DNA from: a virus | Lineage: Duplodnaviria; Caudoviricetes | Direction: 5' to 3' (one strand) | DNA: 64,000 nt | IMG/VR virus record: IMGVR_UViG_3300020036_004254 | In this document: piece by piece, positions 48,878 through 63,135 of the stretch | How the letters are laid out: each line of letters begins with the position of its first letter | Numbering within the stretch: the stretch's first letter is position 1 | Program-made: the position numbers and the translations under genes | Notes under the pieces: model-generated | Database searches by the model: none | Told to the model about the DNA's origin: nothing | The model's input: only the letters and a program-made list of their open reading frames with translations

Positions 48878-48906
48878 TTGACAAACGCAGGAAGGGGGTG
48901 TAAGAT
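48878..48906 (+). promoter_or_regulatory. Sigma70-like promoter at the start of the RNA island
   Basis: TTGACA-N17-TAAGAT. Confidence 0.75.
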
Positions 48907-48931
48907 ATGGGTAACACTCTCTGGGGGTAAT

Positions 48932-49087
48932 GTGGAATACAGCGAAATGATTGAGCGATTGCACCATGTGCTAGCGAGGTTGGATGGCGAGACACGCAAG
49001 TTCTCCGAGGGTGAAGTGAAGAGACAGTTTTTGAAAGATTTAGACGCGGTAGAATGGGCCATCAAGATTGTAGAAGAGAATCAGTAG
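48932..49087 (+). CDS. Hypothetical protein
   Basis: GTG start after GGGGG RBS. Confidence 0.45.
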   Translation: MEYSEMIERLHHVLARLDGETRKFSEGEVKRQFLKDLDAVEWAIKIVEENQ

Positions 49088-49093
49088 TATCAC

Positions 49094-49168
49094 GGGAGGT
49101 TCGCCTAGCGGCTATGGCACTTGTCCTACACACAAGTATAACCGTGGGTTCGAGTCCCACACTTCCCA
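49094..49168 (+). tRNA. tRNA-Val(TAC), C33
   Basis: GGGAGGT/ACTTCCC acceptor; CTTGT-ccTACac-ACAAG; TTCGA T-loop. Confidence 0.88.
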
Positions 49169-49170
49169 TT

Positions 49171-49313
49171 TGGTTCGATACACCAGCCTCGCCAGAGGCG
49201 TGAATGCAGATGACGTACCCGTGTCCTGTCGCTAACGGCGAAATCTAGTACTGCATTCTGTAAGGGAGCGTTATCGACGTAAGGAACCACACGCTGACAT
49301 GGGTGGTTCGCCA
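49171..49313 (+). ncRNA. Candidate pseudoknotted ncRNA
   Basis: GAATGCAG/CTGCATTC, GAACCAC/GTGGTTC, ACCCGTGTC/GACATGGGT pairings. Confidence 0.5.
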
Positions 49314-49317
49314 ATTT

Positions 49318-49400
49318 GGAGAGTACCGCGAAACGGTTTGCAAGTGGACTTGAAATCCATGGACACCGCAAGGTGTGGGGTTCGATTCCTCTACTCTCCT
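49318..49400 (+). tRNA. tRNA-Ser(TGA)
   Basis: GGAGAGT/ACTCTCC; GTGGA-ctTGAaa-TCCAT; long variable arm. Confidence 0.88.
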
Positions 49401-49407
49401 CTGAAGG

Positions 49408-49476
49408 TTTTCTGTGGTGAAATGGAGAACACCCTCTGCTAGCGGGGGATTGTGGGTTCGAGTCCCACCAGAAAGA
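49408..49476 (+). ncRNA. tRNA-shaped RNA with collapsed anticodon loop
   Basis: TTTCTG/CAGAAA acceptor, D arm, canonical T arm; loop only 4-6 nt (GCTAGC). Confidence 0.6.
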
Positions 49477-49672
49477 TGAAGCACCCCTTGACAAACGCAA
49501 TGTAAGGGGTTATGCTATAGAAGTGTTTATTGACAACTGAAGATAGTAGTGTACGTTTAGGTACACCCATTACCTACCATGGTGCCGTGTTGACATTGTT
49601 GGTATCACATCAACACCAGCGCAAGCTGTGTGATATCGATTGGGGGTTCTCCATTCATCCTAAATGGAATAT

Positions 49673-49755
49673 ACCGCCATGGCAAAATGGCAAAGCGCCG
49701 CACTTAGGATGCGGAGTCCGAAAGGGCATTGTGGGTTCGAGTCCCACTGGCGGTA
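49673..49755 (+). tRNA. tRNA-Leu(TAG)
   Basis: ACCGCCA/TGGCGGT; CCGCA-ctTAGga-TGCGG; variable arm. Confidence 0.9.
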
Positions 49756-49757
49756 CT

Positions 49758-49853
49758 GTGACTGTGATGGAACATGATAGACATAGGGAAAGGACAATCC
49801 CGGAAGAGAAATTCCAAACGCTCTTCGTATCGGTTTGAATCCGGTCGGTCACG
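49758..49853 (+). ncRNA. Leu-type tRNA-shaped RNA with non-canonical anticodon loop
   Basis: GTGACTG/CGGTCAC; GGGA-AAGGACAA-TCCC; long variable arm; ATCGG-TTTGAAT-CCGGT. Confidence 0.6.
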
Positions 49854-49948
49854 TTGAAACAACCTTGTAGTACAAATTACCGTTCAGCATGAGCGAGGGG
49901 TGATACTGGCCAGTAAGCCCACGGTCCATGCGTTTAACCCGAACTACG

Positions 49949-50004
49949 GGCGATATCCTGTAGTGGTTAGAAGATGGGGCGTTCGATTCCCCCAACGGTC
50001 GCTA
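49949..50004 (+). ncRNA. Mini tRNA-like element lacking an anticodon arm
   Basis: GGCGAT/GTCGCT ends, TAGTGGTT D-loop, GTTCGATTC T-loop. Confidence 0.45.
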
Positions 50005-50132
50005 TATCGTCCGTCCCTCATGGTTGGGACGTTAAACAAAGGCCAGAATCGTTGTGTGTCCCTTGAGAAGGAACACTCTGGTAAGTGGGGATAGTGCCAT
50101 AATGCAATCTGACTGGTTGCAAACCCCTTCAC

Positions 50133-50207
50133 GCGCTCATCGAATTTAACGGTTAGTTCAACGGACTTTTAATCCGTATGGTGGGGGTTCGAATCCCTCT
50201 GGGCGCA
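50133..50207 (+). tRNA. tRNA-Lys(TTT)
   Basis: ACGGA-ctTTTaa-TCCGT; GCGCTCA/TGGGCGC. Confidence 0.9.
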
Positions 50208-50283
50208 TTGTACAGTCGAACGTGTCAGCACACACCTAGCTAAGTACGAGGGGCCGTTCCTTGTAACTGTACATTCTCAGGAC

Positions 50284-50312
50284 TTGACAAACACCACATC
50301 CGGTGGTACTAT
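50284..50312 (+). promoter_or_regulatory. Sigma70-like promoter
   Basis: TTGACA-N17-TACTAT. Confidence 0.75.
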
Positions 50313-50456
50313 ACGGAGGTCGGAAGACCATAAATTCCCTCTCGTTCTCAATTTCAAGTCTGACGAACGGTTGATTAATGACTTGGTGCGAACTCCACAG
50401 CAGAAGCGGTTGCCTTAAGACAGTAAGCGCAACATTGAGTGGGGAAACTGTCACAT

Positions 50457-50531
50457 GGCGCATTGGTGTAATAGGCTAACACGCAGGATTTTCACTCCTG
50501 AGACTTACGAGTTCGAGCCTCGTATGCGCTA
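50457..50531 (+). tRNA. tRNA-Glu(TTC)
   Basis: CAGGA-ttTTCac-TCCTG; GGCGCAT/ATGCGCT. Confidence 0.85.
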
Positions 50532-50602
50532 TTAGGACAAAAAGACAACAAAAGTAGAGAGTTCGACTCGTATAAATACTAGCAACCTCATCAGGAGCTA
50601 GT

Positions 50603-51382
50603 ATGGTTGTAAAGTGTAAATGTGGAGCGGACTTTGAGAATGTCGGTAAATATGGGATTCGTAAGTTTTGTTCGCGGAAGTGTGCCAACAGCCGTGGACC
50701 GAGAACAGAGGAAACCAAGAGAAAGCAATCAATGTCTCTTGTTGGTCGTAATGTTGGTGGAAAACTCGCCAACCCACTTCTCAAAGAGAAAAGAAAATGT
50801 TTAGGGTGTGATAGCAAATTTGAGTGTTACAAAAAAGCATCCAAACGTTGGTGTTCTCTTAAGTGCAGTAAGAAACTCTCTGGTGGGTACAGGGAGGGTT
50901 CTGGGAACGGGAAGTCTGGGTGGTACAAAGGAATCTTCTGCAATTCTAGCTATGAATTAGCATGGGTGGTTTATCGCTTAGACCACGGATTTGAAGTGAA
51001 AAGATTCTCGGGGTACTTGACTAATGGTGTGTTGAAGTATTATCCTGATTTCATCGTGGGTGACAAACACATTGTTGAGATAAAGGGGTACCATCGTAAA
51101 GAGGTTGATGAGAAGACCGAGCTTGCTAAATCTTTGGGATATGTGATAGATGTCCTATACAAGACAGATTTGCGGGAGTGTTTTGATTGGATACAAACAA
51201 AGTATCACACGAAAAATGTCATCAGCCTTTATGACAACCGAAAACCGAAATTTAGTTATAGATGTCATTTCTGTGGTAAGGATATCTACAGAGAACAAAG
51301 ATTAAAGGGGAAAGTGGCCTTTTGTTCCCGTGTGTGTGCGGGTAAGGGTATACTGAACCGAAAGAATGTTGGGCCGACTTGA
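50603..51382 (+). CDS. Zinc-finger-repeat plus PD-(D/E)XK (TnsA-like) endonuclease
   Basis: FCSRKC repeats; SSYE..YYPDF..VEIKG; own late promoter at 50571. Confidence 0.75.
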   Translation: MVVKCKCGADFENVGKYGIRKFCSRKCANSRGPRTEETKRKQSMSLVGRNVGGKLANPLLKEKRKCLGCDSKFECYKKASKRWCSLKCSKKLSGGYREGSGNGKSGWYKGIFCNSSYELAWVVYRLDHGFEVKRFSGYLTNGVLKYYPDFIVGDKHIVEIKGYHRKEVDEKTELAKSLGYVIDVLYKTDLRECFDWIQTKYHTKNVISLYDNRKPKFSYRCHFCGKDIYREQRLKGKVAFCSRVCAGKGILNRKNVGPT

Positions 51383-51460
51383 ATTATCCTTGCAGGGATT
51401 AGGAGAGGAGGTAAGACACAACGTTGACGAAAGGACTGCAATCCCAAGTCTCATACGTTG

Positions 51461-51530
51461 ATTTTCGTAGCCAAGCGGTCACGGCACCCCCATTGCAGGG
51501 GGCATCGTAGGTTCGAATCCTACCGGAAAT
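51461..51530 (+). ncRNA. Gln-like tRNA-shaped RNA with a 6-nt anticodon loop
   Basis: ATTTTCG/CGGAAAT; GCC-AAGCGGTCAC-GGC; CCCCC-ATTGCA-GGGGG; GTAGG-TTCGAAT-CCTAC. Confidence 0.65.
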
Positions 51531-51533
51531 ATT

Positions 51534-51685
51534 GTTGCGGGATAAGCTCCGTGACAAGCTGGATAGTACAGATAAGAATAGGGTTGGTGAGACTAACCTA
51601 GTGTAAATGCGAACTCTCACTAGGCGCACCAGCATGACGTAATACTCAAACAGGTGTCGCAACCAAGTAGAGTTCTGTATTGTCC
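51534..51685 (+). ncRNA. Candidate pseudoknotted ncRNA
   Basis: GGATAGTACAGA/TCTGTATTGTCC, CCTAGTG/CACTAGG, loop GAACTCT/AGAGTTC. Confidence 0.5.
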
Positions 51686-51689
51686 TTTT

Positions 51690-51761
51690 GCTCTACAAAC
51701 ATAGATGGCGATGTACGGGTTTTGTAAACCTGAAAGGGCAGTTCAAGTCTGCCGTGGAGCT
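51690..51761 (+). tRNA. tRNA-Thr(TGT)
   Basis: CGGGT-ttTGTaa-ACCTG; GCTCTAC/GTGGAGC. Confidence 0.88.
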
Positions 51762-51763
51762 TA

Positions 51764-51870
51764 GGATGGTTTCTCAGGGGGAACACAGACTTCTTGGCGG
51801 AAGTCCAAGCCCCATTCCACGGTGTGCGCCAACGCACCGCGAACAAGGTCGATGCCCTTGGAAATCGTCC
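51764..51870 (+). ncRNA. Kissing-loop ncRNA candidate
   Basis: GGATGGTTTC/GAAATCGTCC closing stem; hairpin loops TTGGCG and CGCCAA are exact complements. Confidence 0.6.
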
Positions 51871-52067
51871 AACTCATTGGGAGGTTGTGGTTTAGGGAAA
51901 CAAGGTTCTTGACGGAGCCTCAAGCCCCATCCGTAAATGTGCGTCAACACGTTTGTATTCGGACAGCAAAGGAGTCATCGACTCTGCACCTGACTGCTAC
52001 CGCTACATTACATCGGGTCTGGGGGAGTCCCTATTGCAAAAGGTATAAAGAACCTGTCCCCCTCCAC

Positions 52068-52140
52068 GCACTGGTAACTCAACTGGCAGAGTATCCGCCT
52101 CTTAAGCGGAAAGTTATGGGTTCGACTCCCATCCGGTGCA
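52068..52140 (+). tRNA. tRNA-Lys(CTT)
   Basis: TCCGC-ctCTTaa-GCGGA; GCACTGG/CCGGTGC. Confidence 0.92.
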
Positions 52141-52398
52141 TTGTTTGAAAATGATATACTCTGGAAAAGAAGAATTTACATTTCTTACACTCTTGAAGGG
52201 AAAGAAAGAACGTATACACCAGACTTCTTTCTACCAAATGAAAATTTGTACTTAGAAGTAAAGGGATACTTTTCAGAAATTGACAAGAAAAAGATTGATG
52301 TTGTATCAAAGATAATACCGATAAAGCTTGTGTTCAAAAAACATCTAGATAGGTTGAAAACAATTTCAACGATTGATGAACTTCTTGGCGTTTTATAG
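52141..52398 (+). pseudogene. PD-(D/E)XK nuclease-domain remnant
   Basis: YTPDF..YLEVKG; abuts the tRNA-Lys 3' end; no RBS or N-terminal domain. Confidence 0.6.
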
Positions 52399-52407
52399 AA
52401 CAACTGA

Positions 52408-52480
52408 CGGCGTGTAATTCAATGGTCAGAAATTTCGTCTTATATACGAAAAGTTGTGGGTTCAATTCCCACCACGCCTA
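52408..52480 (+). tRNA. tRNA-Ile(TAT)
   Basis: TTCGT-ctTATat-ACGAA; GGCGTG/CACGCC. Confidence 0.8.
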
Positions 52481-52484
52481 CTTT

Positions 52485-52573
52485 TGTCAAGTGTGGGAAA
52501 ACTCCTTAGCGGGGGCTAGGTCGGTTGGTATGCCGACAGGGTTCGAATCCTATACAACACCCGACACTTGACA
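52485..52573 (+). ncRNA. tRNA-like RNA on a 13-bp extended stem
   Basis: TGTCAAGTGTGGG/CCC-G-ACACTTGACA enclosing three hairpins, the last with a GGTTCGAATCC T-loop. Confidence 0.6.
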
Positions 52574-52579
52574 TATCAC

Positions 52580-52652
52580 GGCTCTATCGTCTAGGGGACA
52601 AGGACACCACCCTCTCAAGGTGGGGACGGCAGTTCGAATCTGCTTAGAGCTA
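52580..52652 (+). tRNA. tRNA-Glu(CTC)
   Basis: CCACC-ctCTCaa-GGTGG; GGCTCTA/TAGAGCT. Confidence 0.9.
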
Positions 52653-52757
52653 TTGGGTTGTGTAACACGGAAGGAACGCCGTGTGACTATATCAAAGCGG
52701 GTGTTAATCTCGCCACAATCCCCACTTGACTTCGATGAAACATGGTAGTATACTTAC

Positions 52758-52831
52758 GCCCTTATAGCTCAGTCCGGAAGAGCGACGGTCTTCGGAACCG
52801 TGCGTCGGGAGTTCAAATCTCTCTAGGGGCA
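52758..52831 (+). tRNA. tRNA-Arg(TCG)
   Basis: ACGGT-ctTCGga-ACCGT; promoter TTGACT-N17-TATACT at 52726-52754. Confidence 0.9.
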
Positions 52832-52853
52832 CTTCATTCATCATGGGGGGGTT

Positions 52854-53261
52854 ATGCAAACGTTTCTACCGTATGCGGACTTTGACAAGACGGCACAGGT
52901 GCTTGACCGTCAGCGGTTGGGCAAGCAACGCATCGAAGCTAAACAGATTTTGCAAAACCTTCTAGAAGAAACAGAGAAGCAGGGGTGGAAGAATCACCCT
53001 GCGGTCAAGATGTGGAAGGGAAGTGAAGGTGTGTTGGCACAGTACGGTGTGGCGATTTGTGCAGAGTGGGTTCGTCGGGGTTACAAAGACAACCAGATGG
53101 CCTACTTTGTTGAGCGTGTCAACAATGCACCAACGCCTACATGGTTGGGTGACAATGCGTTTCATGTGGCGCATCAATCCAATCTGGTACGAAAGAACGC
53201 AGAGCATTACGGAAAGTATTTTCAGGTCACAAACGATTTGCCGTATGTGTGGCCAGTTTGA
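52854..53261 (+). CDS. MSMEG_6728-family pyrimidine-dimer DNA glycosylase-like protein
   Basis: MQTFLPY, LDRQRLGKQRIE, HPAVKMW, HQSNLVRK, YVWP. Confidence 0.85.
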   Translation: MQTFLPYADFDKTAQVLDRQRLGKQRIEAKQILQNLLEETEKQGWKNHPAVKMWKGSEGVLAQYGVAICAEWVRRGYKDNQMAYFVERVNNAPTPTWLGDNAFHVAHQSNLVRKNAEHYGKYFQVTNDLPYVWPV

Positions 53262-53262
53262 G

Positions 53263-53296
53263 TGGTGAGGTAATGGCTCACCAAGGCCACGACGGG
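53263..53296 (+). other. 16S rRNA helix-11-like fragment
   Basis: TGGTGAGGTAATGGCTCACCAAGGCCACGACGGG closely matches recalled bacterial 16S sequence (E. coli ~250-285 region). Confidence 0.75.
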
Positions 53297-53414
53297 CAAA
53301 TTCTCTTTAATCATTCGACCAGTTGATGGAACTGGATTGCCGTACTACGACTACGGTGGTGTCTTACGGACGTTCTCAGTGGGAATGGACGAAGAAATCA
53401 AAATCCATCACTGA

Positions 53415-53485
53415 AGGTCATTCGTCTATCGGTAAGACTTCCGCCTCCAAACCGGAAAAGGTGGGTTCGATTCCTACATGGCCTG
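53415..53485 (+). tRNA. tRNA-Trp(CCA)
   Basis: AGGTCAT/ATGGCCT-G; loop ctCCAaa. Confidence 0.85.
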
Positions 53486-53520
53486 TTGCAGTTTCATCAT
53501 TTCACTTAGTGAGGTTTCAC

Positions 53521-53814
53521 ATGTTTAATCCGCTTTCCGACAACGTTATTATCACCCCTTCAACCGCTTCCGAGACACAGACCGCTGGTGGTTTGTACAT
53601 CCCAGAGACGGCTCAGGCGAACGGTGCCATCACTCACGGTACTGTTGTGGCGGTTGGTCCCGGTCATATCTATGATTCCGGTGTCCGTGGAGAAATGTTG
53701 ACCAAGGTTGGTGATACCGTGTGGTACGCCAAGGGTCATGCGTCAACCATCACGTTGGATGGTAAGCAGTACAAGGTTGTGGCAGAGCGCAACATCTTTG
53801 GGTATCATCGGTAA
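53521..53814 (+). CDS. groES: Co-chaperonin GroES-like
   Basis: PLSDNVII, TAGGLYIPETA, GTVVAVGPG, KVGDTV. Confidence 0.92.
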   Translation: MFNPLSDNVIITPSTASETQTAGGLYIPETAQANGAITHGTVVAVGPGHIYDSGVRGEMLTKVGDTVWYAKGHASTITLDGKQYKVVAERNIFGYHR

Positions 53815-54014
53815 TGAAAGACTTCCTGAAGGACATCGCCGTGGGTTCTGTGGTGATGGTAGTGTCTGGTATGGTTTGGGTTGTAGCGTACCATGTTGTC
53901 AACAATCTAAATCTTTTCGATGATATTTTGATGGGACTATTGGCAATTGCTATTATAATGGCCGCGTCTATCGTTGGTACCATTACGAGGAGCCTATGGA
54001 ATTCGTATCGCTAA
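53814..54014 (+). CDS. Small 2-TM membrane protein
   Basis: Two hydrophobic helices; TAATG coupling. Confidence 0.65.
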   Translation: MKDFLKDIAVGSVVMVVSGMVWVVAYHVVNNLNLFDDILMGLLAIAIIMAASIVGTITRSLWNSYR

Positions 54015-54538
54015 CATTGAAACAGTTAGACCAAGACACCGCAGAAATCAGAACGGTGGTCAATACCGATGTGTTGCTGTCTTTGTTCAGAAAGAAGAGG
54101 GTGAAAGAGGTTGAACTGTTTTATGACAATCTTGGGCAGGAAATTGCAAGACAAATCAATGAGGTATTTGGAAACTGCGAACCAGAGTTTTTCGTAGAAT
54201 CGTTGGGTGACCAACAGCACCGAACGCATCGGGGAACCACGGTACATGGACAAACGTTTGTTTCGGTGCAGTCCGTGGTCAAGGTCTTGCCAGAAGGTGG
54301 GGGCTTGACATACGACCTCTCAACCGCTATCGTTGACCATATCAAGGTGGCGATGCGGGAAGGAACCCCGGTGTTTCCACATACGGCAACATCTTTGTGT
54401 GCAGAGGGTGTGTTGTTTAATGTTCTTCTGACAGACGAAAAGAGAATGGAAGGTCTTTCTTTGGATGAAATTGTTCGAATTGCAACAACGGCGTTGGAAA
54501 AGGAAGTACGAAGGGAAGCTTGGAAAGCGCGGGTATAA
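53996..54538 (+). CDS. Hypothetical protein
   Basis: GAGGAG RBS; stop lies inside tRNA-Gly. Confidence 0.6.
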   Translation: MEFVSLTLKQLDQDTAEIRTVVNTDVLLSLFRKKRVKEVELFYDNLGQEIARQINEVFGNCEPEFFVESLGDQQHRTHRGTTVHGQTFVSVQSVVKVLPEGGGLTYDLSTAIVDHIKVAMREGTPVFPHTATSLCAEGVLFNVLLTDEKRMEGLSLDEIVRIATTALEKEVRREAWKARV

Positions 54539-54600
54539 TTCAGTGGTAGAATGCCGAGTTGCCAACCCGGATGCCGTGGGTTCGAACCCCACTACCCGCT
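54529..54600 (+). tRNA. tRNA-Gly(GCC)
   Basis: GCGGGTA/TACCCGC-T; loop ttGCCaa. Confidence 0.9.
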
Positions 54601-54621
54601 TAACTTTATCATGAGGTCACA

Positions 54622-54834
54622 GTGAAAAACAAAAAGATGTCCAGAACAAAAGTGATAAAGAATCTTCGTGCTATCAGAAGTTTGCTAACCCGTTTGCACA
54701 ACAATGGAAACATTATTGGGGTGGTCACGGAAGAAGACCAAGCCTTGACAGAAGCCATTCGGCTGATTAAGTTAGATATGAAGTCTATCAGCGATAAGAA
54801 GAAATTTGAGAAGTTTGGCATTCGGATATGGTGA
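54622..54834 (+). CDS. Hypothetical basic protein
   Basis: GAGG RBS, GTG start. Confidence 0.5.
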   Translation: MKNKKMSRTKVIKNLRAIRSLLTRLHNNGNIIGVVTEEDQALTEAIRLIKLDMKSISDKKKFEKFGIRIW

Positions 54835-54842
54835 GGACTAAC

Positions 54843-55331
54843 ATGGATATGATTCAGAAGGCTCTGTACTTTGCCGCCAAGAAGCACGGTGACCAGAAAT
54901 ACAGTGACATGCCGTACATGGTACACATTGCGTGTGTGATGAGTGTACTTCAGCGGTACAAGGCTCGTGAGGATGTGATTGTGGCAGGTATCTTGCACGA
55001 TGTGCTGGAAGACACTGACACCACGTATGAGGAGATTGACAACCTGTTTGGTGACCGTGTGGCCAAGTTGGTGTTGGCCGTTACGAACCCAAAAGAGGGT
55101 AGTCGTAAGCAGAAGCACGAGATTCAGTATCCCAAGATTCGTGAAGCGGGGGTGTGGGCGGTTCAGGTCAAACTGGCTGACCGCATCGCCAACGCCGGAA
55201 GCGGTGGCAAGCTTGGGATGTACCAGCGGGAACACGAGACGTTCCGCAAGCACCTGTACGACCGTGGGGATATCATGATTCAGGCCATGTGGAACGAACT
55301 TGAAGAGATTGTTATGGTTCCGGGGTTCTAG
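54843..55331 (+). CDS. HD-domain (p)ppGpp hydrolase-like (SpoT-HD/Mesh1)
   Basis: AAKKHGDQ, PYMVH, LHDVLEDT, VKLADRIAN. Confidence 0.88.
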   Translation: MDMIQKALYFAAKKHGDQKYSDMPYMVHIACVMSVLQRYKAREDVIVAGILHDVLEDTDTTYEEIDNLFGDRVAKLVLAVTNPKEGSRKQKHEIQYPKIREAGVWAVQVKLADRIANAGSGGKLGMYQREHETFRKHLYDRGDIMIQAMWNELEEIVMVPGF

Positions 55332-55715
55332 ATGAAAATCTTCTGTCTAGAAGCTGATGTAGTAAACCCATCCGGGAGAGTCTATCCAAAAGCCGTCTTG
55401 GAAAAGGCGGTAGCGGATTACACCGAAGAGTTTGTTGGGGGTAATAGAGCGTTGGGTGAATTGGGTACTCCTGACGGTCAAGTGGTAAACCTCAAAAATG
55501 TATCACATATCGTTCGTGGGTTTCATTGGGAGGGGGATAAGTTGTTTGCTGACATAGAGGTGTTAAGTACACTCAGTGGAGCTATGGTAAAATCGTTGTT
55601 GGCCAACGGTGTGAAACTACGTGGTTCCATTAGAGGACTGGGTTCGTTGGTGGACTCAATTGTCCAAGACGACTATACCATTTCTTCTATCGATGTGAGG
55701 TTAGATGACAACTAA
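55332..55715 (+). CDS. Truncated gp21 prohead-protease paralogue lacking the catalytic His
   Basis: NPSGRVYP, ALGELGTP (vs GELGHP), VSH, GSIRGLGS (vs VSSRGLG). Confidence 0.8.
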   Translation: MKIFCLEADVVNPSGRVYPKAVLEKAVADYTEEFVGGNRALGELGTPDGQVVNLKNVSHIVRGFHWEGDKLFADIEVLSTLSGAMVKSLLANGVKLRGSIRGLGSLVDSIVQDDYTISSIDVRLDDN

Positions 55716-55977: not shown

Positions 55978-55980
55978 GGC

Positions 55981-56009
55981 TTGACAAACGAAGGAAGGGT
56001 CACTAACTT
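55981..56009 (+). promoter_or_regulatory. Sigma70-like promoter upstream of the large ncRNA
   Basis: TTGACA-N17-TAACTT. Confidence 0.7.
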
Positions 56010-56016: not shown

Positions 56017-57013
56017 TGAAGCGGGGAGAACGGGGTGCCTAATCCTCGTCAAGGCGATGCGACACCAGCTATGCCTTGTGGTCCAAGTGTGGACGCCCTG
56101 CACGTTTTCTGAAGGAGTTGTCCTTCAGAGTGGTGGAGGTTCGCTGATTAACAAATGAAAGATGGGGTGTTTGGACTCCATAAGAGCAGTGTGTCGCAAG
56201 ACGCATAAAGGTGTGTATCTTTGTAAGCACCGCTGGCCAAAAGCCAGTTCACCCAAACAAGTCTGACCGAGGGGGTATTCGAACACTCCCGCTTCACTGT
56301 AACGGTGGAGATAGGTCTGAAGAGTAGGTAGAGAAGAAAGCCTCATCGACGCTCCGCAAGGAAAGCGGGTGGGGAAGACTGACAGGTGGTGCTGGGTACT
56401 CTACACAACCAACTATTCGAAGACGGATTGGTAACAGATATACACGCATGTCCAAGGGGTTGCACCCAAGGGCTAGGTGTGATGTCGAAAGGTTTGAGCG
56501 GGGTGCTATTCCAAATAGCCTCGCCCTAAATCTTGACAACAGATTAAGTACCCGGAGCAAGGGGAAAGGTAGCCGTGGAGTGTTGCATTCTGGTATCCAA
56601 AAGATACTGGAACAACTGAGGAAGCACTTCACTCAAAGTTCGTTTAGGGTTAGAAGCCCACAATAATTTGGATATTGCCAAACACAAAAAAGGAAAGACT
56701 TCCTCGGTCTTAACGCGAAAAGTAGCATAATGCCTTCCCGTAAGGAAGAAGGCAGATTCGATGGCCCCAAGCCTGACAATCTTTCATGCAGACTCGCACA
56801 TAATCTCCTAGCGGAGACTAACGGCTCGCAAGGTCGGTGGTAGAGAAAACGTGGAGTAGCGTAAGATGACGGTCACACTGTTCAGACCTTAAAAAGAACT
56901 GCTTCGGTTGTCTACTTCCTTGCGGAAGTGGAAAAGAGGGGAAAGGCTGGTGGGGACACTGGCTCATAATCCCTTGAAAGGACGACTACGGAAGGTGTAT
57001 TCTCAGCCTCCCA
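56017..57013 (+). ncRNA. ~1-kb large structured ncRNA, GOLLD-like
   Basis: No credible ORF; many hairpins with GNRA-type loops; 3' ACTTCC/GGAAGTGGA..AAGGTGTATTCTCAGCCT resembles the recalled GOLLD 3' domain; sits in a phage tRNA cluster. Confidence 0.65.
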
Positions 57014-57022
57014 CAATACTAC

Positions 57023-57098
57023 AGCGCATCGGACTCAAGGTCAGGGTCGCCAGTTTCGGGAACTGGATAACAGGTGGATTCGATTTCCACATGCGCTA
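57023..57098 (+). tRNA. tRNA-Pro(CGG), atypical acceptor
   Basis: CCAGT-ttCGGga-ACTGG; AGCGCAT/ATGCGCT. Confidence 0.78.
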
Positions 57099-57189
57099 TC
57101 GGTGGGTCCGACGAATTGCGGTGTGATGGCCGAATGTTCTGAGGATAAGCCGTACATCAATCATTATCATCACAATATTAGGCGATGTA

Positions 57190-57253
57190 TTTCTCGTGGA
57201 CGAATGGCAAGTCGGCGTAGAACGCATGGCGGGTTCGAATCCCCCCGAGAAAA
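57190..57253 (+). ncRNA. tRNA-shaped RNA with miniature anticodon arm
   Basis: TTTCTCG/CGAGAAA; GAC-GAATGGCAA-GTC; GCG-TAGAA-CGC; GGG-TTCGAAT-CCC. Confidence 0.65.
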
Positions 57254-57493
57254 TGGATGGAGAGAGCAAGAAACAATAACAAAAGAATCACCGTGGATGC
57301 GCGGTATAAGGCTTTTGTGAAAACTTCTGTCAGACATGACGGCTCGCCATCCTCTACTGGAATGGAACGGGGACCATTAGTCAGGGAAAAGCGAAGAGAT
57401 AACTTCAAAATGCTCGGTACCGTGATGACGATATCAAATTCTCGGCAATATGTCTACAGAGCATACGTGGTCTGTAAAACCTCTATTGACTAC

Positions 57494-57566
57494 GCCAACT
57501 AAGTTTACGTGGTCGGAACGTCTGTCTGAAGAGCAGAATGGCTCAGTTCAATTCTGAGAGTTGGCA
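57494..57566 (+). tRNA. tRNA-Phe(GAA)
   Basis: TCTGT-ctGAAga-GCAGA; GCCAACT/AGTTGGC. Confidence 0.88.
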
Positions 57567-57567
57567 C

Positions 57568-57642
57568 TGGCGCATAGCTTAGTCTGGTCTAAAGCAGTAT
57601 CCCGACACGATACGAGCGGGAGTTCGAATCTCTCTGTGCCAA
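57568..57642 (+). tRNA. tRNA-Val(GAC), C33
   Basis: GTATC-ccGACac-GATAC; TGGCGCA/TGTGCCA. Confidence 0.85.
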
Positions 57643-57709
57643 TTTTAGGTTGTAGAGATATTCAAACGTATAAATACTCTTTGGTTAGTTATCCCAAGGA
57701 GATTTGAAT

Positions 57710-58318
57710 ATGACGATGACCAGAAAAGAAGTTTGTGTATTAGCGGGTGCGGGTGCCGCAAAATACAACAGAAAACAAAAACAGAAAAGAATATCAGAAT
57801 ACAATAAAACGCCAACACGCTGTATGACTTGTACAGCCCCACTTGTATATGAAAAAAGAAAGTATAAATTCTGTTCGAAAAAGTGTGCAGGGGTGGAAAA
57901 CGGCAAAAGATTTCCAAAAAGAAAAAGAGTGCCGCGCTGGTGTGTATACTGCAAAAAAGAAACCAAAAAATATGGAAAATATTGTGATAAGAAGTGCGAG
58001 TTTTCTCACAAAGACGAAAAAAGATTAGAAAAACTGAAAAATGGATTGGTGAAAGATAGAAGAGTTTTGAGAACCTTTTTGATAGAAACTCGCGGATATA
58101 AGTGTGAGTTGTGTTCAAATAATGGGTCACACAATGGTTTAAAATTGATTTTAGAAATTGACCACGTTGATGGAAATTCTGATGATTCTTCTCCAAAAAA
58201 CATAAGATTTTTGTGCCCCAATTGTCACAGTCAACAACCGACTTCTGCTGGTGGCATTAAAAACAAAAAGTTTCACAAAAGAAACCTGATAATGCACCGA
58301 AGAAGTATGCCGCTATAG
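57710..58318 (+). CDS. HNH homing-type endonuclease with zinc fingers
   Basis: CELC..LEIDHVDG..NIRFLCPNCHSQ; own TATAAATA at 57669; AT-rich. Confidence 0.85.
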   Translation: MTMTRKEVCVLAGAGAAKYNRKQKQKRISEYNKTPTRCMTCTAPLVYEKRKYKFCSKKCAGVENGKRFPKRKRVPRWCVYCKKETKKYGKYCDKKCEFSHKDEKRLEKLKNGLVKDRRVLRTFLIETRGYKCELCSNNGSHNGLKLILEIDHVDGNSDDSSPKNIRFLCPNCHSQQPTSAGGIKNKKFHKRNLIMHRRSMPL

Positions 58319-58382
58319 CCAAGTTGGTTAAGGCAGGAGTCTCATAAGCTCCCATGCAACAGTTCGAATCTGTTTAGCGGTA
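58309..58382 (+). tRNA. tRNA-Met/Ile2(CAT), elongator type
   Basis: GGAGT-ctCATaa-GCTCC; GCCGCTA/TAGCGGT. Confidence 0.88.
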
Positions 58383-58443
58383 TCAGGGAGTTAACTGTCC
58401 CCGTAGGGTCCGTCGCGGCGGCTTGTACCCCAACAGTCATTGA

Positions 58444-58516
58444 CGCGGGAATGGAGCAAAAGAGGCTCGCTTGGCTCATAACCAAGAGACGGTAGGCGCA
58501 ATCCCTACACCCGCTA
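58444..58516 (+). tRNA. Initiator-like tRNA-fMet(CAT), divergent
   Basis: CGCGGG start with C1 mismatch; CTTGG-ctCATaa-CCAAG; aberrant T-loop CGCAATC. Confidence 0.7.
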
Positions 58517-58537
58517 TCGTTTAACATAGAGGTCTAT

Positions 58538-58915
58538 ATGAACAATTACGTTCGAACAGAAATTGGGGATTTGCTCCCGTGCTTCAAGTGTGGGAAAGCG
58601 ATGACCGAATCCGCTGGTCCGTGTGGTGGAGACGGGGTTGACTCTCAGGGGAACCAAGGCATTTGGGCGGTTCCCTATAAAGGAACGGAGTTCGACACCA
58701 TGGGGCATTATGGTTCAACATTTTGGGACTCCTTTGAGAGCGAAAGCATCACGATTACAATTTGTGATGAATGCTGTAAAGAACACATTCGCCTCATGCG
58801 GTTTCGTAAGCGTGTGCGATATGGACGTTCGATTGAATTTACACCAGAAGAATACAAGGAATTATATGAGTGGAAATTGGGGCTGGAAACCGGAGAGGGC
58901 ACCGGAAACGGATAA
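58538..58915 (+). CDS. Hypothetical Cys-rich protein
   Basis: CFKC..GHYGSTFWD..ICDEC. Confidence 0.7.
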   Translation: MNNYVRTEIGDLLPCFKCGKAMTESAGPCGGDGVDSQGNQGIWAVPYKGTEFDTMGHYGSTFWDSFESESITITICDECCKEHIRLMRFRKRVRYGRSIEFTPEEYKELYEWKLGLETGEGTGNG

Positions 58916-59017
58916 TGGACGATTCGCTTGTCAAGGAATCTACGGTTGTACCAAGACGGTCAAGCAAGAAGGAACGGCGTGTCTGGCGTGTAAACGTAAA
59001 CTGAAGAGGGATTCTAA

Positions 59018-59290
59018 ATGAACGGTTCTGTGTGTTATTCTCGGGATGGAGAAATTCGATTTCGGGAAAAGTTTTGCTTCTTCAAGTATAGTTTTACTAC
59101 CAAGAAATCCCATATTGATAATCGTGTTTTGTGCGAAGATTGGTACTGGTTGGAGTGGATTACCATCACGGAAGTCTTTACCACCCGTCGAGACGGATTT
59201 GACTATATTAATGAATGGGTTCCGACTTGGGTGGTGTCTGGTCGTCACAAGAAGTGGATTGAAGACCAAATGAAGAAGGCCACCAGATGA
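59018..59290 (+). CDS. Hypothetical protein (paralogue of next ORF)
   Basis: DGEIRFREKFCFF..YWLEWIT. Confidence 0.65.
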   Translation: MNGSVCYSRDGEIRFREKFCFFKYSFTTKKSHIDNRVLCEDWYWLEWITITEVFTTRRDGFDYINEWVPTWVVSGRHKKWIEDQMKKATR

Positions 59291-59505
59291 TTTGGGAAAA
59301 TCGAGTTCTAAAAGATGGGGAAATTCGATATCGCCACAAGTTTTGTTGGTTTCCGTACACGTGGAGATATACGTTTGTAGAACGGACCTATTGGCTCATA
59401 TGGATTACTGTGAAAGAAGAATGGAAATGGAGTAAAACCACGATTAAGTGGTTGCCCGTGAATGTTACAGAAGGAAAGTTGGACTTGACAAACGCCAATT
59501 GGTGA
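59287..59505 (+). CDS. Hypothetical protein (paralogue of previous ORF)
   Basis: DGEIRYRHKFCWF..YWLIWIT. Confidence 0.65.
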   Translation: MIWENRVLKDGEIRYRHKFCWFPYTWRYTFVERTYWLIWITVKEEWKWSKTTIKWLPVNVTEGKLDLTNANW

Positions 59506-59630
59506 GTTAAGCTTAGGATGTTCGTGAACGCACAGTAGGAACTAGTGAAGCGGTGCAAGTAGCGAAAAAGCAAGATGTGAGGCTGAAGTGCAGGGAACTG
59601 GTATCTAGACTGCATACACATCAACCACAT

Positions 59631-59711
59631 GGTGTCGTTGAGCAACTGGCTGGCTCACCAAACTGTAAATTTGGCTCCTAGGACTTGAAGGTTCGACTCC
59701 TTCCGGCACCA
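59631..59711 (+). tRNA. tRNA-Tyr(GTA)
   Basis: CCAAA-ctGTAaa-TTTGG; variable arm; GGTGTCG/CGGCACC. Confidence 0.9.
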
Positions 59712-59788
59712 CTTTAGTAGATAAATAGTAGGGTCACAACCTAGTAATCCAGAAAGGTGCAAGTACCAGATAAACGGTTGTGACATAC

Positions 59789-59861
59789 CCTCGTCAGGTG
59801 TATCGGTTTGCATTTTCGTCTGATAAACGAGAGGTGCCCAGTTCAATTCTGGGGACGAGGA
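59789..59861 (+). tRNA. tRNA-Ile(GAT)
   Basis: TTCGT-ctGATaa-ACGAG; CCTCGTC/GACGAGG. Confidence 0.82.
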
Positions 59862-59987
59862 CTTGGTTTGACGATTAGAGCGTGATGTTGGAAGCGCAAG
59901 ATATGACTTCATGCAGTGAAGAGCGTCGAACTCTTGTTGATACCTTACCGTTGGGTTGCAACGCAATGTCGTAGTGCAAGAAAGAAA

Positions 59988-60060
59988 GGGCGGTTAACTC
60001 AGTGGTAGTAGTGGCAAGCTGTTAACTTGTTCGTCGGGGGTTCGATTCCCTCACCGCCCG
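59988..60060 (+). tRNA. tRNA-Asn(GTT)
   Basis: GCAAG-ctGTTaa-CTTGT; G73. Confidence 0.88.
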
Positions 60061-60106
60061 TTGTAGGAAACGCGCACGATTTTCATGAATCGCGCACGAA
60101 AAATCT

Positions 60107-60178
60107 GGGGAGTAGAGTGTGTTGGGATGCACAAATCTTTTGCAAAGATTGAGAGGGGTTCGATTCCCATACTCTCCA
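60107..60178 (+). tRNA. tRNA-Ala(TGC)
   Basis: AATCT-ttTGCaa-AGATT; G3:U70 present. Confidence 0.85.
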
Positions 60179-60323
60179 CTAAGTAGGTCATTGAGGGCAA
60201 CAATAAAATTCCCCGAAGTCTACGCCGCAAAACGCAGAACATGAGCGAGTTGGTGGGATATGAAAGTAGACACGTTGTTGAGCGACCTGAGCCTACCACC
60301 ACTGTAACATCCAAGGGGTTCTT

Positions 60324-60839
60324 ATGCGAGCCATTGTGCATTTGGGTGGAAACCCCAAGCGACTTCAGACTACGCACATTGAAGTGTTGCGGTATCCAAA
60401 CTCGTTTGTGGTGTTTCTTACACCAGAAAACCCAGAAGAGTGTTTTCGAAAAATGGTCATGGCGGGTGTTCCACGCAAGAAAATCCTGTTTGGGTTTAAG
60501 GGGTGGGATACGCTGACCGGATTTGTTGAGTTGAAGAACATGTTGGTGGGAATGGGTGTCAAGCACATTATCCTTGTCACGGATGAAGGGCACTTGAATC
60601 CTCGTTCGTTGTGGACCGCGAAGATTGTGTTTTTCATGTGTGGTATCAAGATTACTGGTGCGGCACACCCGTCATCGTACAAAGACCCATGGACTCGTGT
60701 GGTGGTAGATGTCTTTCGTGCCGTGGTTCATACCTGTACAGACATTCTGTTGTACAATCCAAAGATTCGCAAAGAAAGAGAGTTGAGTATTGCGGGTTTC
60801 AAGCGGGAGTACCTTGACAAAGTTGCACGTGTAGTATAA
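60324..60839 (+). CDS. YdcF/ElyC (DUF218)-like protein
   Basis: VHLGG..R, WDTLTGF, ILVTDEGHLNPRS. Confidence 0.6.
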   Translation: MRAIVHLGGNPKRLQTTHIEVLRYPNSFVVFLTPENPEECFRKMVMAGVPRKKILFGFKGWDTLTGFVELKNMLVGMGVKHIILVTDEGHLNPRSLWTAKIVFFMCGIKITGAAHPSSYKDPWTRVVVDVFRAVVHTCTDILLYNPKIRKERELSIAGFKREYLDKVARVV

Positions 60840-60859
60840 GTTGTACTTGTAGTATAGAA

Positions 60860-60932
60860 GGGCCTATCGTCTATCGGAAAGGATTTTTCCCTGTCACGGA
60901 AAAGAGCGCGGGTTCAACTCCCCGTAGGCCCG
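60860..60932 (+). tRNA. tRNA-Asp(GTC)
   Basis: TTTCC-ctGTCac-GGAAA; promoter TTGACA-N17-TAAGTT at 60814-60842. Confidence 0.9.
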
Positions 60933-60944
60933 TTTACTTACATT

Positions 60945-61205
60945 ATGGAGGTTCTTGTGAGAAAGGCTACGTTGAAGAAAGAAGTCAAGACCAGAAAAAT
61001 CGTCTATTGTGTGTTCACCACGGATGATGACGGGTTCATGCGCGAACCCATGCGTAGTGGGTATTACGGGAGAGAACACATATTCAACAGATATGGATAC
61101 GATACGCCGGAACAGGCGTATGACGCCATTGAAAAGGAAACCAGCTACGGTGGATACTTCGTTGTGCCCAAGATGACTATCGATACGGAGTACGTATGGG
61201 AGTAA
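60945..61205 (+). CDS. Hypothetical protein
   Basis: GYDTPEQAYDAI, similar to next ORF; start may be GTG at 60957. Confidence 0.6.
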   Translation: MEVLVRKATLKKEVKTRKIVYCVFTTDDDGFMREPMRSGYYGREHIFNRYGYDTPEQAYDAIEKETSYGGYFVVPKMTIDTEYVWE

Positions 61206-61513
61206 GACCCAAAAAGATTAAAACTCCACCACCTCAGTTAGAAGAGGTGGTGGAGAAGGAAATCCGGTGGTTCATCAGGGAAATCACTGAAGAGGGTCAT
61301 ATACTTCCTAGACACGATGGGTTTGAGTACAACGGGTATAATTCTCTAGAAGAAGCGCAAGAAGATATTCTCCGTTATCTGAGGAGAATGAATGACAATA
61401 TGTATGAGTATCACACTCCAACATTGTATAATGGTCAAACAAGTGGATTCAGGGCAAAATTCTTTGTCATTCCACAAATTTATGTACATGTATTTCATCG
61501 GGTAGTGCAGTAA
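61196..61513 (+). CDS. Hypothetical protein
   Basis: GYNSLEEAQEDI. Confidence 0.6.
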   Translation: MGVRPKKIKTPPPQLEEVVEKEIRWFIREITEEGHILPRHDGFEYNGYNSLEEAQEDILRYLRRMNDNMYEYHTPTLYNGQTSGFRAKFFVIPQIYVHVFHRVVQ

Positions 61514-61586
61514 TATTACAGCAATCACATTTCACAAGGAGAGGACCATGACTAGAATTCTATAGCCCCTTAACAAGGAGTTTTCT

Positions 61587-62156
61587 ATGCATGGCAGTAA
61601 GAAGTGGATTCAGGACTATCGTGGTCGGTGGAAGCGGTCGAGTGACCGCACCAAGAAAGACTATTACGCTGGTCTGAGGAAGTGGAAGGTGCCGTATCGT
61701 TTGAGATACGGTCAAGAAAACCCAGACACCGGGGAATTCTGCCCCCAGTGCAAGCACGTGCAGAAGTCGTTGCACAACGATTATGTGACCTATTACGCCG
61801 TCCGGAATCAGGTGCGACAGGAATGGAAGACGTTGTTCGGTGATTCGTACTGGGTCAAGGTTGACGGCAAGTCGTTGTACTTCGAGGACTATTTCCATCA
61901 GCACAAAGACTATCCGGGTCCGTTGTGGAACTACGACCTTCGTAGCTACCTGTGCTTCAAGCACGAGCGCATGTACGAGCAGGAGCGGGAAATGTGGTAC
62001 GACAACTACCACGGGAAGAAGCGTGGCAGTCAGTGGACCATCAAGCACGAGCGACAGAAGTACCGCCGTCAGGTCAAGCAGAAGATGGCGAGGGCCAAGT
62101 ACGACGAGGAGGTCTACGACGAGATTCTTCCCCCGAGGAGAGGGTGGTTGGATTGA
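61587..62156 (+). CDS. Basic aromatic-rich hypothetical protein
   Basis: AAGGAG RBS; CPQC..CFKH. Confidence 0.7.
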   Translation: MHGSKKWIQDYRGRWKRSSDRTKKDYYAGLRKWKVPYRLRYGQENPDTGEFCPQCKHVQKSLHNDYVTYYAVRNQVRQEWKTLFGDSYWVKVDGKSLYFEDYFHQHKDYPGPLWNYDLRSYLCFKHERMYEQEREMWYDNYHGKKRGSQWTIKHERQKYRRQVKQKMARAKYDEEVYDEILPPRRGWLD

Positions 62157-62313
62157 CCCTTGACAAGTACCAATCGATGTAGTAGGTTAGATGTGCATCA
62201 CACAATGTGCCGATTCGGAATAAATGAAAATAATGGGGCAAAGGGCAAGGTTCGTGGGTCACAATCTCCCCCACCAAGTAACCAAAAGGTCTAACGGGTT
62301 GTGTGATGTGTTC

Positions 62314-62388
62314 GCCAGTGTACGAGAAGAGGCATATCGGGGGGATTTAAAATCCCTTGCTTTGTGGGTTCGAGGCCCACCACTGGCA
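62314..62388 (+). tRNA. tRNA-Leu(TAA), short variable region
   Basis: GGGGA-ttTAAaa-TCCCT; GCCAGTG/CACTGGC-A. Confidence 0.82.
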
Positions 62389-62446
62389 TGGATAGAGCGA
62401 GAGGTTTCACTTGTATAAATACATGTGACTCTTTCGCGGAAGGAAA

Positions 62447-63067
62447 ATGGGTGTATGTAAGCATTGTGGTAAAGGTTTTGATATTTCAGAAAAACCAAAA
62501 GGTTGGATGGCTAATCACACAAGATGGTGTTCTGAAAATCCAAAATCAAAGATTCACAAAGACAATATGATTTTTGCTCGTTCTTGCATTAAAGAACACA
62601 GCAATCAACACATAAAGGCCAAAAAAATAGGAAGTGGCGGCTTTCTTGTTTCAAAGGAAACAAGATTGAAATTGTCGATAGCTGGTTCTAAAAGAAAACA
62701 CACCAAAGAAAGTATTGAAAAAATGAGTGTTTCTGCTCGTCTTTCAAAACACAGAAGACTGAGAAAAAAAATGATTGAGTATAAAGGAATTATGCTTGAT
62801 TCGTCTTGGGAACTAGCTCTTGCAAAAAGATTAGATAAACTTGGTGTGTTGTGGGTCAGACCTGAACCTCTCGTCTATTTCGATAGACAAGGAAAAGAGA
62901 GACATTATTTCCCTGATTTTTTTCTTCCAGAATACAACACATTTCTTGACCCCAAAAATCCACAAGCATATAAAGTACAAAAAGAAAAGATAGACCTTCT
63001 AAACGAACAGTTTTCAAACATTTTCTTCATCAGAACGTTATCTGATGTTGAGAAATATACGCCCTAG
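62447..63067 (+). CDS. Zinc-finger/NUMOD3-like plus PD-(D/E)XK endonuclease
   Basis: CKHC..H..C; KHTKESIEKMS; DSSWE..YFPDF..DPK; TATAAATA at 62414. Confidence 0.78.
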   Translation: MGVCKHCGKGFDISEKPKGWMANHTRWCSENPKSKIHKDNMIFARSCIKEHSNQHIKAKKIGSGGFLVSKETRLKLSIAGSKRKHTKESIEKMSVSARLSKHRRLRKKMIEYKGIMLDSSWELALAKRLDKLGVLWVRPEPLVYFDRQGKERHYFPDFFLPEYNTFLDPKNPQAYKVQKEKIDLLNEQFSNIFFIRTLSDVEKYTP

Positions 63068-63135
63068 TATTGGCCCTGACTTCTAATCAGAAGGCGCATA
63101 ACTGGAATATGGGGGTTCGAATCCCTTCTGGGGCA
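63061..63135 (+). tRNA. Rearranged tRNA-Arg(TCT) with D-loop-like sequence after the anticodon arm
   Basis: GCCCTAG/CTGGGGC; CTGA-ctTCTaa-TCAG only ~8 nt after the acceptor; AACTGGA follows it; canonical T arm. Confidence 0.7.

Follow-up and report, generated by a model that had tools for sequence, protein, structure and literature searches.

The viral record IMGVR_UViG_3300020036_004254 of IMG/VR (64,000 nucleotides, all of which were analysed and are called the window below) carries between 48.8 and 63.1 kb a 14-kb stretch in which tRNA genes, other RNA elements and small protein genes follow one another, every feature lying on the + strand; this stretch is the tRNA gene island of an uncultured T4-like aquatic phage. 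An earlier note on this DNA had described it as an RNA island, and its multiple promoters, its single-strand orientation and the non-tRNA RNAs directly adjoining tRNAs are borne out by the sequence. By our tally of 14.3 kb, about 55% is protein-coding, 13-14% tRNA or tRNA-like and 7% GOLLD RNA (see below), and the remaining approximately 25% is other non-coding DNA. The island's canonical tRNA genes number 22, every one of them on the + strand, and eight or more further elements have the shape of a tRNA without being canonical.

The phage was assigned to the T4-like myoviruses because of the structural and replication gene set in the window, which includes genes for the portal, the scaffold, a gp23-type capsid protein, an SbcC-like nuclease and a family-B (gp43-like) polymerase, with a DnaB-like helicase, a ribonucleotide reductase and a ligase as further T4-like markers. 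No deposited phage has a capsid protein more than 62% identical to that of the present one (the nearest being Methylophilales phage Melnitz and Pelagibacter phage HTVC008M), and neither megablast nor blastn found any nucleotide match of the island among 50,697 phage records. Near-identical contigs were obtained from environmental samples (JGI, Logan). Queries of IMG/VR with the HD protein, GroES, DUF6433, the initiator-like tRNA and patterns of the elements E1 and E2 described below returned one related contig, IMGVR_UViG_3300045973_000170; L001 is the sole syntenic contig from that database, L016, L017, L018, L022 and L023 were obtained via exact-protein look-ups, and a metagenome scan with GroES gave a single distant match, which was uninformative. 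Proteins of these relatives are 54-77% identical to those of the window. They have a common tRNA order, including the block Gly - HD - GOLLD - Pro - Phe - Val - Met - Met-like - Tyr (HD standing for the hydrolase gene), and the synteny HD - GOLLD - tRNA-Pro is seen in L001, L016, L017 and L018.

ARAGORN predicts 23 tRNAs from 49094 to 62388, all on the + strand, to which Rfam adds a Ser-type match near the threshold at 49317-49400 and weak tRNA matches at 58445-58515 and 63061-63135. Both programs call the tRNAs for Val(UAC) (49094-49168), Leu(UAG) (49673-49756), Lys(UUU) (50133-50207), Glu(UUC) (50456-50532), Lys(CUU) (52068-52140), Ile(UAU) (52408-52481), Glu(CUC) (52580-52652), Arg(UCG) (52758-52832), Trp(CCA) (53415-53485), Gly(GCC) (54529-54600), Phe(GAA) (57494-57567), Val(GAC) (57568-57642), Met(CAU) (58308-58384), Tyr(GUA) (59631-59712), Asn(GUU) (59988-60060), Ala(UGC) (60107-60179), Asp(GUC) (60860-60932) and Leu(UAA) (62314-62388); those for Thr(UGU) (51690-51761), Pro(CGG) (57023-57098) and Ile(GAU) (59789-59862) are called by ARAGORN. 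The slightly aberrant tRNA-Ser(UGA) (49318-49401) was found by ARAGORN at a lowered threshold and by the tRNA-Sec model of Rfam with a sub-gathering score of 41.6 bits, and L001, L016 and L023 have a tRNA-Ser(UGA) at the orthologous position.

The GOLLD RNA and the promoters of the island

The giant non-coding RNA that had been claimed for this region is GOLLD. A covariance-model search matched the Rfam family RF02032 at 56575-57009 with 196.1 bits (gathering score 150; E 9e-54), and the match spans model positions 1-416 of 416; the relatives score 170-186 bits. The RNA as a whole (56016-57009, + strand) would measure about 1 kb from its predicted start, with a conserved core at 56106-57009. 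We place its length at about 0.9-1.0 kb because conservation on the 5' side reaches approximately 56106 in four sister phages and runs up to the promoter at 55981 in the two nearest. Identity to L001 and L016-L018 is 80-87% in the 3' half and 68-89% in the 5' half, the block 56106-57009 is free of open reading frames (ORFs), the folding z-scores (z) are -3.1 and -2.5, and compensatory changes are visible along the full length. A seemingly hypervariable block between the window and the contig L009 was rejected, as it is merely a masked run of N. The 3' end lies 13 nt before tRNA-Pro, and this gap measures 12-13 nt in four of five phages (L001, L016 and L018 among them). Thus the RNA shows the features of RF02032: a score over the whole model, the pattern of 5' and 3' domains, a phage genome as carrier and a tRNA nearby.

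GOLLD and ROOL are often found near tRNA islands, and GOLLD assembles into a 14-mer cage (bioRxiv 10.1101/2024.12.08.627333); a mycobacterial cluster of 32 tRNAs contains GOLLD together with an HNH gene (PMC6582537). The location of GOLLD by tRNA islands with HNH genes is therefore already published and this part of our description is already known. The present RNA resembles other GOLLD RNAs in its conserved 3' and more variable 5' domain, in its length of about 0.9-1.0 kb, in adjoining a tRNA and in sharing its cluster with HNH genes. It differs from them in having its own conserved promoter and in forming the whole 5' leader of tRNA-Pro(CGG), with the gap of 12-13 nt; moreover, no tRNA is embedded in its linker and its carrier is a T4-like aquatic or wastewater myovirus.

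All eight promoters proposed earlier match the motif TTGACW-N16-18-TANNNT, and those at 48878 (P1), 49488/49530, 55981, 59485 and 62160 are kept in relatives. The window holds 26 matches to this motif where 3.65 are expected (a 7-fold excess); 24 of them are on the + strand and 12 fall in the island, and an extended box, TTGACAAAC, is common to many of the promoter sites. P1 (TTGACAAACG..N17..TAAGAT, 48878-48906) stands just 3' of a terminator-like hairpin (48829-48872), whose 9-bp G+C stem, followed by a U-rich tail, closes the upstream gene block and is invariant in five relatives; the TTGACA of P1 itself is invariant in the window, L001, L016, L022 and L023. Two tandem promoters follow (49488 and 49530, together 49488-49557), both with -35 boxes that are invariant in four phages, then a motif match TTGACAAACAC..TACTAT (50284-50312), the promoter at 52726-52754, that of the GOLLD unit (55981-56009, 96% identical to P1 across 23 nt) and those of the Tyr unit (59485-59513), the Asp unit (60814-60842, a motif match) and the Leu(UAA) unit (62160-62188). 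The promoters of the GOLLD, Tyr and Leu(UAA) units are conserved in L018. The TTGACAAAC-type motif was also observed outside the island, on the + strand, at 9724, 29501, 41916 and 11 more sites, which are spread over the genes of replication and nucleotide metabolism; it probably represents the early promoter class of this phage.

tRNA look-alikes, structured spacers and protein passengers

tRNA mimics had been claimed as well, and at least eight non-canonical tRNA-shaped elements can indeed be found on the + strand of the island. Two of them were detected by ARAGORN: one at 49408-49476, with G33 and 'CUA' in the anticodon loop, whose orthologue in L001 has retained its acceptor, D and T arms and has a 49-nt insertion in the anticodon region, and one at 51461-51531, with an anticodon loop of 6 nt that is also found in the L001 orthologue (Rfam tRNA score 48.9 bits). 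Folding suggests further elements. At 49758-49852, a 7-bp closing helix and a T-arm-like hairpin occur without an anticodon arm (unconserved, z -0.4), and at about 49879-50000 a cloverleaf-like element with a T-arm-like hairpin can be drawn with low confidence (unconserved, z -1.5). Three hairpins enclosed by a perfect helix of 10 bp make up the element at 52485-52573 (z -3.9); one of them bears the T-loop motif GGUUCGAAUCC, the sole part common to relatives. The 63-nt element at 57190-57252, called neither by ARAGORN nor by Rfam, folds into a 7-bp acceptor-like helix, a T arm and a truncated anticodon arm; in this element as well as in that at 49758-49852 the T arm sits directly before the 3' strand of the closing helix.

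The remaining two are closer to ordinary tRNAs. An initiator-like tRNA(CAU) at 58445-58517 (Rfam 31.6 bits; ARAGORN at low threshold) has a C1xU72 mismatch and the aberrant T loop CGCAAUC, and it is 99-100% identical in L017 and L018, as compared with about 85% for GOLLD and about 57-63% for the proteins. At 63061-63135, beside an inserted endonuclease gene, a tRNA-Arg(UCU)-like element (Rfam 32 bits, and by fold) has its anticodon arm ahead of a D-loop-like stretch, whereas the tRNA-Arg(UCU) of L001 shows the normal order of arms at the same place, 2 nt after tRNA-Leu(UAA). A 7-nt anticodon loop, U33 and a normal cloverleaf, by which we recognise a decoding tRNA, are not found together in the elements at 49408-49476, 51461-51531, 57190-57252, 49758-49852, 52485-52573 and 63061-63135.

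According to the earlier note, most of the spacers between the tRNAs are structured. This did not hold when judged by folding energy (see the next section), and it did hold for six to eight spacer or leader elements in which comparison with five sister phages reveals conserved sequence and compensatory base-pair changes. The best supported are E1, E2 and E3. E1, between tRNA-Val and tRNA-Ser (49169-49316; window, L001, L022 and L023), comprises 46 pairs, 13 of them compensatory, and is 95.7% paired, as compared with 35-45% when the partners are slid (0 of 500 shuffles did as well). E2 is a 5' leader with a 13-bp closing helix (62194-62312), extending from the predicted transcript start to tRNA-Leu(UAA); over three phages its 24 pairs (six compensatory) are 94% paired, against 35-56% when slid, and none of 500 shuffles reached its covariation score. 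E3 is a hairpin in the leader of tRNA-Tyr (59572-59624), with a 17-nt loop (GGGAACUGG.A..CUAG) that is invariant in four phages and an inner 6-bp stem that is 100% paired, four pairs being compensatory (covariation score again 0 of 500 shuffles).

Support from two sequences follows for E4, E5 and E6. E4 (51532-51689), between the tRNA with the 6-nt loop and tRNA-Thr, keeps 23 of 23 pairs in the window and L001, seven of them compensatory, has a z of -3.4 on the + strand only, and the L001 spacer is similar in length. In E5, the leader of tRNA-Leu(UAG) (49558-49672), which is conserved in L016, all 33 pairs are kept (three compensatory), and one hairpin loop bears a variable insertion. E6, on the 3' side of tRNA-Ala (60180-60323), is 81% identical to L018 4672-4754 and keeps 24 of 24 pairs, three of them compensatory. 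Two further conserved stretches are a hairpin spacer at 58385-58444, which is 90% identical to L017 4574-4625 (14 of 14 pairs kept, one compensatory) and absent in L018 and L001, and a conserved block 5' of the tRNA with the 6-nt loop (51383-51460; 75.6% identical to L001 7531-7610, local alignment z 16).

An Rfam search at E<=1 gave no match to ROOL or any other family in the spacers, E1-E6 and the 58385-58444 hairpin included. The pseudoknots that had been proposed for the spacers found no support in the one case tested, E1, where 117 of 500 shuffles do equally well; it was rejected, as only five of nine and four of five proposed pairs hold in all four phages and they compete with better-supported nested helices. 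Five matches of the E1 pattern in GTDB (Methanosarcina, Wallbacteria, Hungatella) were rejected likewise, being approximately the number expected by chance and showing neither similarity by hidden Markov model nor tRNAs. A hairpin at 53255-53292 resembles helix 11 of 16S rRNA (positions 243-279 of the Rfam bacterial small-subunit model), the match being weak (10.2 bits; E 0.46 when 191 nt were searched); it adjoins the stop codon of the DenV-like gene on the 3' side. A comparable piece at L001 11880-11925 scores 32 bits (E 2e-5) with a small-subunit model but lies in the 5' leader of GOLLD, so that the piece occurs in two phages at two different locations. A short hairpin after tRNA-Leu(UAA), at 62389-62446, has z values of -4.6 (+) and -4.0 (-), is symmetric in this respect and has no counterpart in L001.

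The three protein passengers named earlier were all recovered. The 162-aa protein encoded at 54843-55331 is a small, stand-alone hydrolase domain of the RelA/SpoT type (HD_4, Pfam PF13328; 60.7 bits against a cut-off of 27.2, E 1.8e-16) with 390 homologues, and it occupies the same position in all relatives. A GroES (Cpn10) co-chaperonin is encoded at 53509-53814 (PF00166, E 1.2e-22; phrog_3188). The gene directly following that of the hydrolase (55332-55715, 127 aa) encodes a paralogue of the prohead protease gp21 (Peptidase_S77, PF03420) that reads GELGTP and GSIRG where the phage's own gp21 (4697-5350) has GELGHP and VSSRG. His is thus replaced by Thr, as had been noticed, and additionally Ser by Ile; by analogy with T4 gp21 we take these two positions to be catalytic, and judged from its sequence the paralogue is inactive.

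Three endonuclease genes lie in the island: an HNH homing-endonuclease-like gene of 259 aa (50603-51382; phrog_1271, E 1.9e-8), which is absent at this place in L001, an HNH gene at 57710-58318 (PF01844), which is absent in L017 and L018, where the Val and Met tRNAs abut, and an endonuclease-like gene between tRNA-Leu(UAA) and the Arg-like tRNA (62447-63067; phrog_15137, E 1.7e-11), which is missing from L001, with just 2 nt between the two tRNAs there. There are also a gene for a DenV-like pyrimidine-dimer DNA glycosylase (52854-53261; PF03013, E 2.5e-25) and an 85-aa ORF (52141-52398) with a weak Phage_endo_I match (PF05367, 29.1 bits, exactly at the cut-off). In the strain represented by the ENA contig ERZ27257534, which matches the window at about 47-64 kb, the HD protein is identical and the gene calls of the island differ: the 259-aa HNH gene is absent, a 218-aa gene stands at the place of DenV, and an HNH_3 gene is found near 62.4 kb on the opposite strand. 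The island is therefore variable among close strains.

Proposed release of the RNAs and competing readings

Taking the observed parts together with their order, their conservation and the shared promoter motif, we consider it probable that the locus is a tRNA and stable-RNA island with several promoter units, containing GOLLD, tRNA look-alikes and conserved small RNAs that would be released by RNase P and RNase Z. Rightward transcription from about eight early-type, sigma70-like promoters bearing the box TTGACAAAC would give rise to several polycistronic precursors, comprising 22 decoding tRNAs, the GOLLD RNA of about 1 kb, at least eight tRNA-shaped RNAs and six to eight structured leader or spacer RNAs, with homing-endonuclease genes, DenV, GroES, the SpoT-type HD hydrolase and the putatively inactive gp21 paralogue mixed in. 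The host RNase P would cut at the 5' end of every tRNA or tRNA-like element, and cleavage of the RNase Z type would come after the discriminator base, the latter because CCA is encoded in none of the 28 tRNA or tRNA-like genes (49094-63135) and a U (T in the DNA) stands immediately 3' of the discriminator in 26 of them. Both cuts are drawn from the preferences of the two enzymes. Besides freeing the tRNAs, they would yield GOLLD and the structured spacers as discrete RNA by-products, as happens in the tRNA cluster of T4. GOLLD, E2, E3 and E5 each occupy the leader from a promoter to the first tRNA of its unit; RNase P cleavage would therefore define their 3' ends. The architecture of the island agrees with release by the two enzymes; we infer both this route and whatever function the non-tRNA RNAs may have in trans, and a role as decoys or scaffolds, in host takeover or in counter-defence is speculation.

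Several observations weigh against so integrated a picture. The 25 spacers outside GOLLD have a mean z of -1.1 on the + and -0.9 on the - strand, five of them at <=-2.4, while 25 length-matched control segments elsewhere in the window have a mean of -0.8, with three at <=-2.4; folding energy was therefore rejected as evidence of structure, and 'most spacers' is an overstatement. (The lowest fold value in the window, a z of -5.5, belongs to one such control segment, 15232-15431 within the SbcC-like gene.) For about half of the spacers no counterpart could be detected in any relative; those at 49757-50132, 50208-50455, 53262-53414, 57099-57493, 59713-59788 and 59863-59987 are among them, and so are the largest (49757-50132, 50208-50455 and 57099-57493). 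In the relatives, tRNAs often abut at 1-14 nt where the window has spacers; many of the latter are thus accessory and dispensable, and do not belong to a single integrated module. The covariation counts are favourable estimates, since only two to five sequences entered them and the structures had been predicted from those very alignments. Finally, the promoter at 52726 leaves just 3 nt between its -10 box and tRNA-Arg, and a scheme of leader and subsequent RNase P cleavage does not fit this unit.

In a more sceptical interpretation, GOLLD aside, most of the non-coding DNA outside the tRNAs would have no function as RNA and consist of debris and signals, that is, decaying tRNA duplicates, scars left by inserted homing-endonuclease genes and small ORFs, promoters and terminators, with the look-alikes as pseudogenes nearing deletion. 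Spacers that fold no better than controls, the lack of conservation in the large ones and the close packing of tRNAs in relatives speak for it, as do three endonuclease genes inserted at sites that are empty in relatives and a rearranged Arg(UCU)-like tRNA that adjoins one of them while the L001 copy is normal. Yet it does not explain why compensatory changes preserve the helices of E1, E2 and E3 in phages with a protein identity of only 54-73%, nor why L001 retains the CUA-like element and the anticodon loop of 6 nt; the initiator-like tRNA, with its near-complete identity in L017 and L018 as against GOLLD, and the perfect 10-bp closing helix of 52485-52573 with its z of -3.9 argue in the same direction. 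As an account of the island we find it rather doubtful.

The conserved leaders and spacers might also act in cis only, as folding insulators, as guides of processing, as protection of the 5' triphosphate or by setting the order or timing of RNase P and RNase Z cuts, with the tRNA-shaped elements as extra cutting signals that have no role once released; these two proposals, which we take jointly, appear unlikely to us. They would suit the position of E2, E5, E3 and GOLLD between the promoter and the first tRNA of the unit, and the pairing of the extreme 5' end of E2 with the bases just before its tRNA. Acceptor and T arms are the part of a tRNA that RNase P and RNase Z read, and it is these that the look-alikes keep while losing the anticodon arm. 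Against a purely local role, relatives process the same tRNAs without the elements (tRNA-Pro and tRNA-Phe are 5 nt apart in L018, and tRNA-Leu comes right after the promoter in L001), and recognition by a partner, rather than spacing, is suggested by the loop of E3, whose 17 nt are invariant, and by the conservation of sequence inside E2.

A bolder proposal is that leaders, spacers, look-alikes and the helix-11-like hairpin are co-ordinated RNAs which, after release by RNase P and RNase Z, act in trans on host translation or defence (they might, for example, be sponges for tRNA-targeting nucleases, for toxSAS enzymes or for a ribosomal protein), while the SpoT-type hydrolase repairs tRNA 3' ends; as a whole we hold this to be improbable. 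For the hydrolase itself there is a precedent, as some small alarmone hydrolases (SAHs) restore tRNA modified by FaRel2-type toxins (bioRxiv 10.1101/2021.04.30.441581). [quoted passage not shown] Because some SAHs do so, this HD_4 protein, conserved beside GOLLD, could be a candidate tRNA 3'-end repair enzyme against toxSAS defences.

That the spacers encode small proteins overlooked by gene callers is very improbable and was rejected: short + strand ORFs do exist (among them one of 81 aa at 57257-57502, which is called in L009, and one at 48908-49087), but protein-level conservation is nil, as they have no match in relatives beyond the nucleotide identity of the underlying GOLLD or tRNA and no Pfam match, and the conserved elements vary by compensatory pair changes and not in a codon pattern.

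Returning to the stable-RNA island, its closest known counterpart is the tRNA cluster of T4, from which the co-transcribed stable RNAs species 1 and 2 (rnaC, rnaD) are known. The two have in common a same-strand cluster in a T4-like genome, non-tRNA RNAs amid the tRNAs and a homing endonuclease gene inside, which in T4 is SegB (PMC2330249). The present island differs in its 22 tRNAs (eight in T4), its many promoters, GOLLD, at least eight look-alikes and the protein passengers, and there is no sequence similarity between the island and T4. The region resembles a T4-type tRNA cluster that has grown into an island of stable RNAs, GOLLD included; it is a rich case of a known kind of region and not a new system. 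ROOL and other structured RNAs by phage tRNA arrays share its genomic setting; unlike these, E1-E6 are undescribed motifs, seen so far in two to five related phages.

What the island adds are at least three well-supported RNA motifs outside Rfam (E1, E2 and E3) and tRNA-shaped RNAs unable to decode, which together support the view that phage tRNA islands are general loci of stable RNAs, beyond the supply of codons. For GOLLD, whose cage structure has been solved, it offers a compact natural setting in which to study function, with a defined promoter, a 3' end that would be set by the cleavage maturing tRNA-Pro, and a conserved SpoT-type hydrolase and small RNAs alongside. If partners of the released RNAs exist, phage-host interaction would gain a new layer; if none exist, the island would exemplify how tRNA operons gain and lose structured filler.

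A different route to mature tRNA ends is suggested by two of the relatives. Searching for the core of a hammerhead ribozyme (CUGAUGA ... GAAA, three stems) gave no more matches in the window than expected by chance, and the hammerhead-like core described here is absent from the window, L016 and L018. In L001 (14944-15000) and L017 (5741-5797), however, such a core, not called by Rfam, lies directly 5' of tRNA-Tyr and consists of CUGAUGAG, a GCCC/GGGC stem, CGAAAC, a short stem III and GUC. As predicted from the sequence, its stem I would pair with the first bases of the tRNA, and self-cleavage would give the mature 5' end without RNase P.

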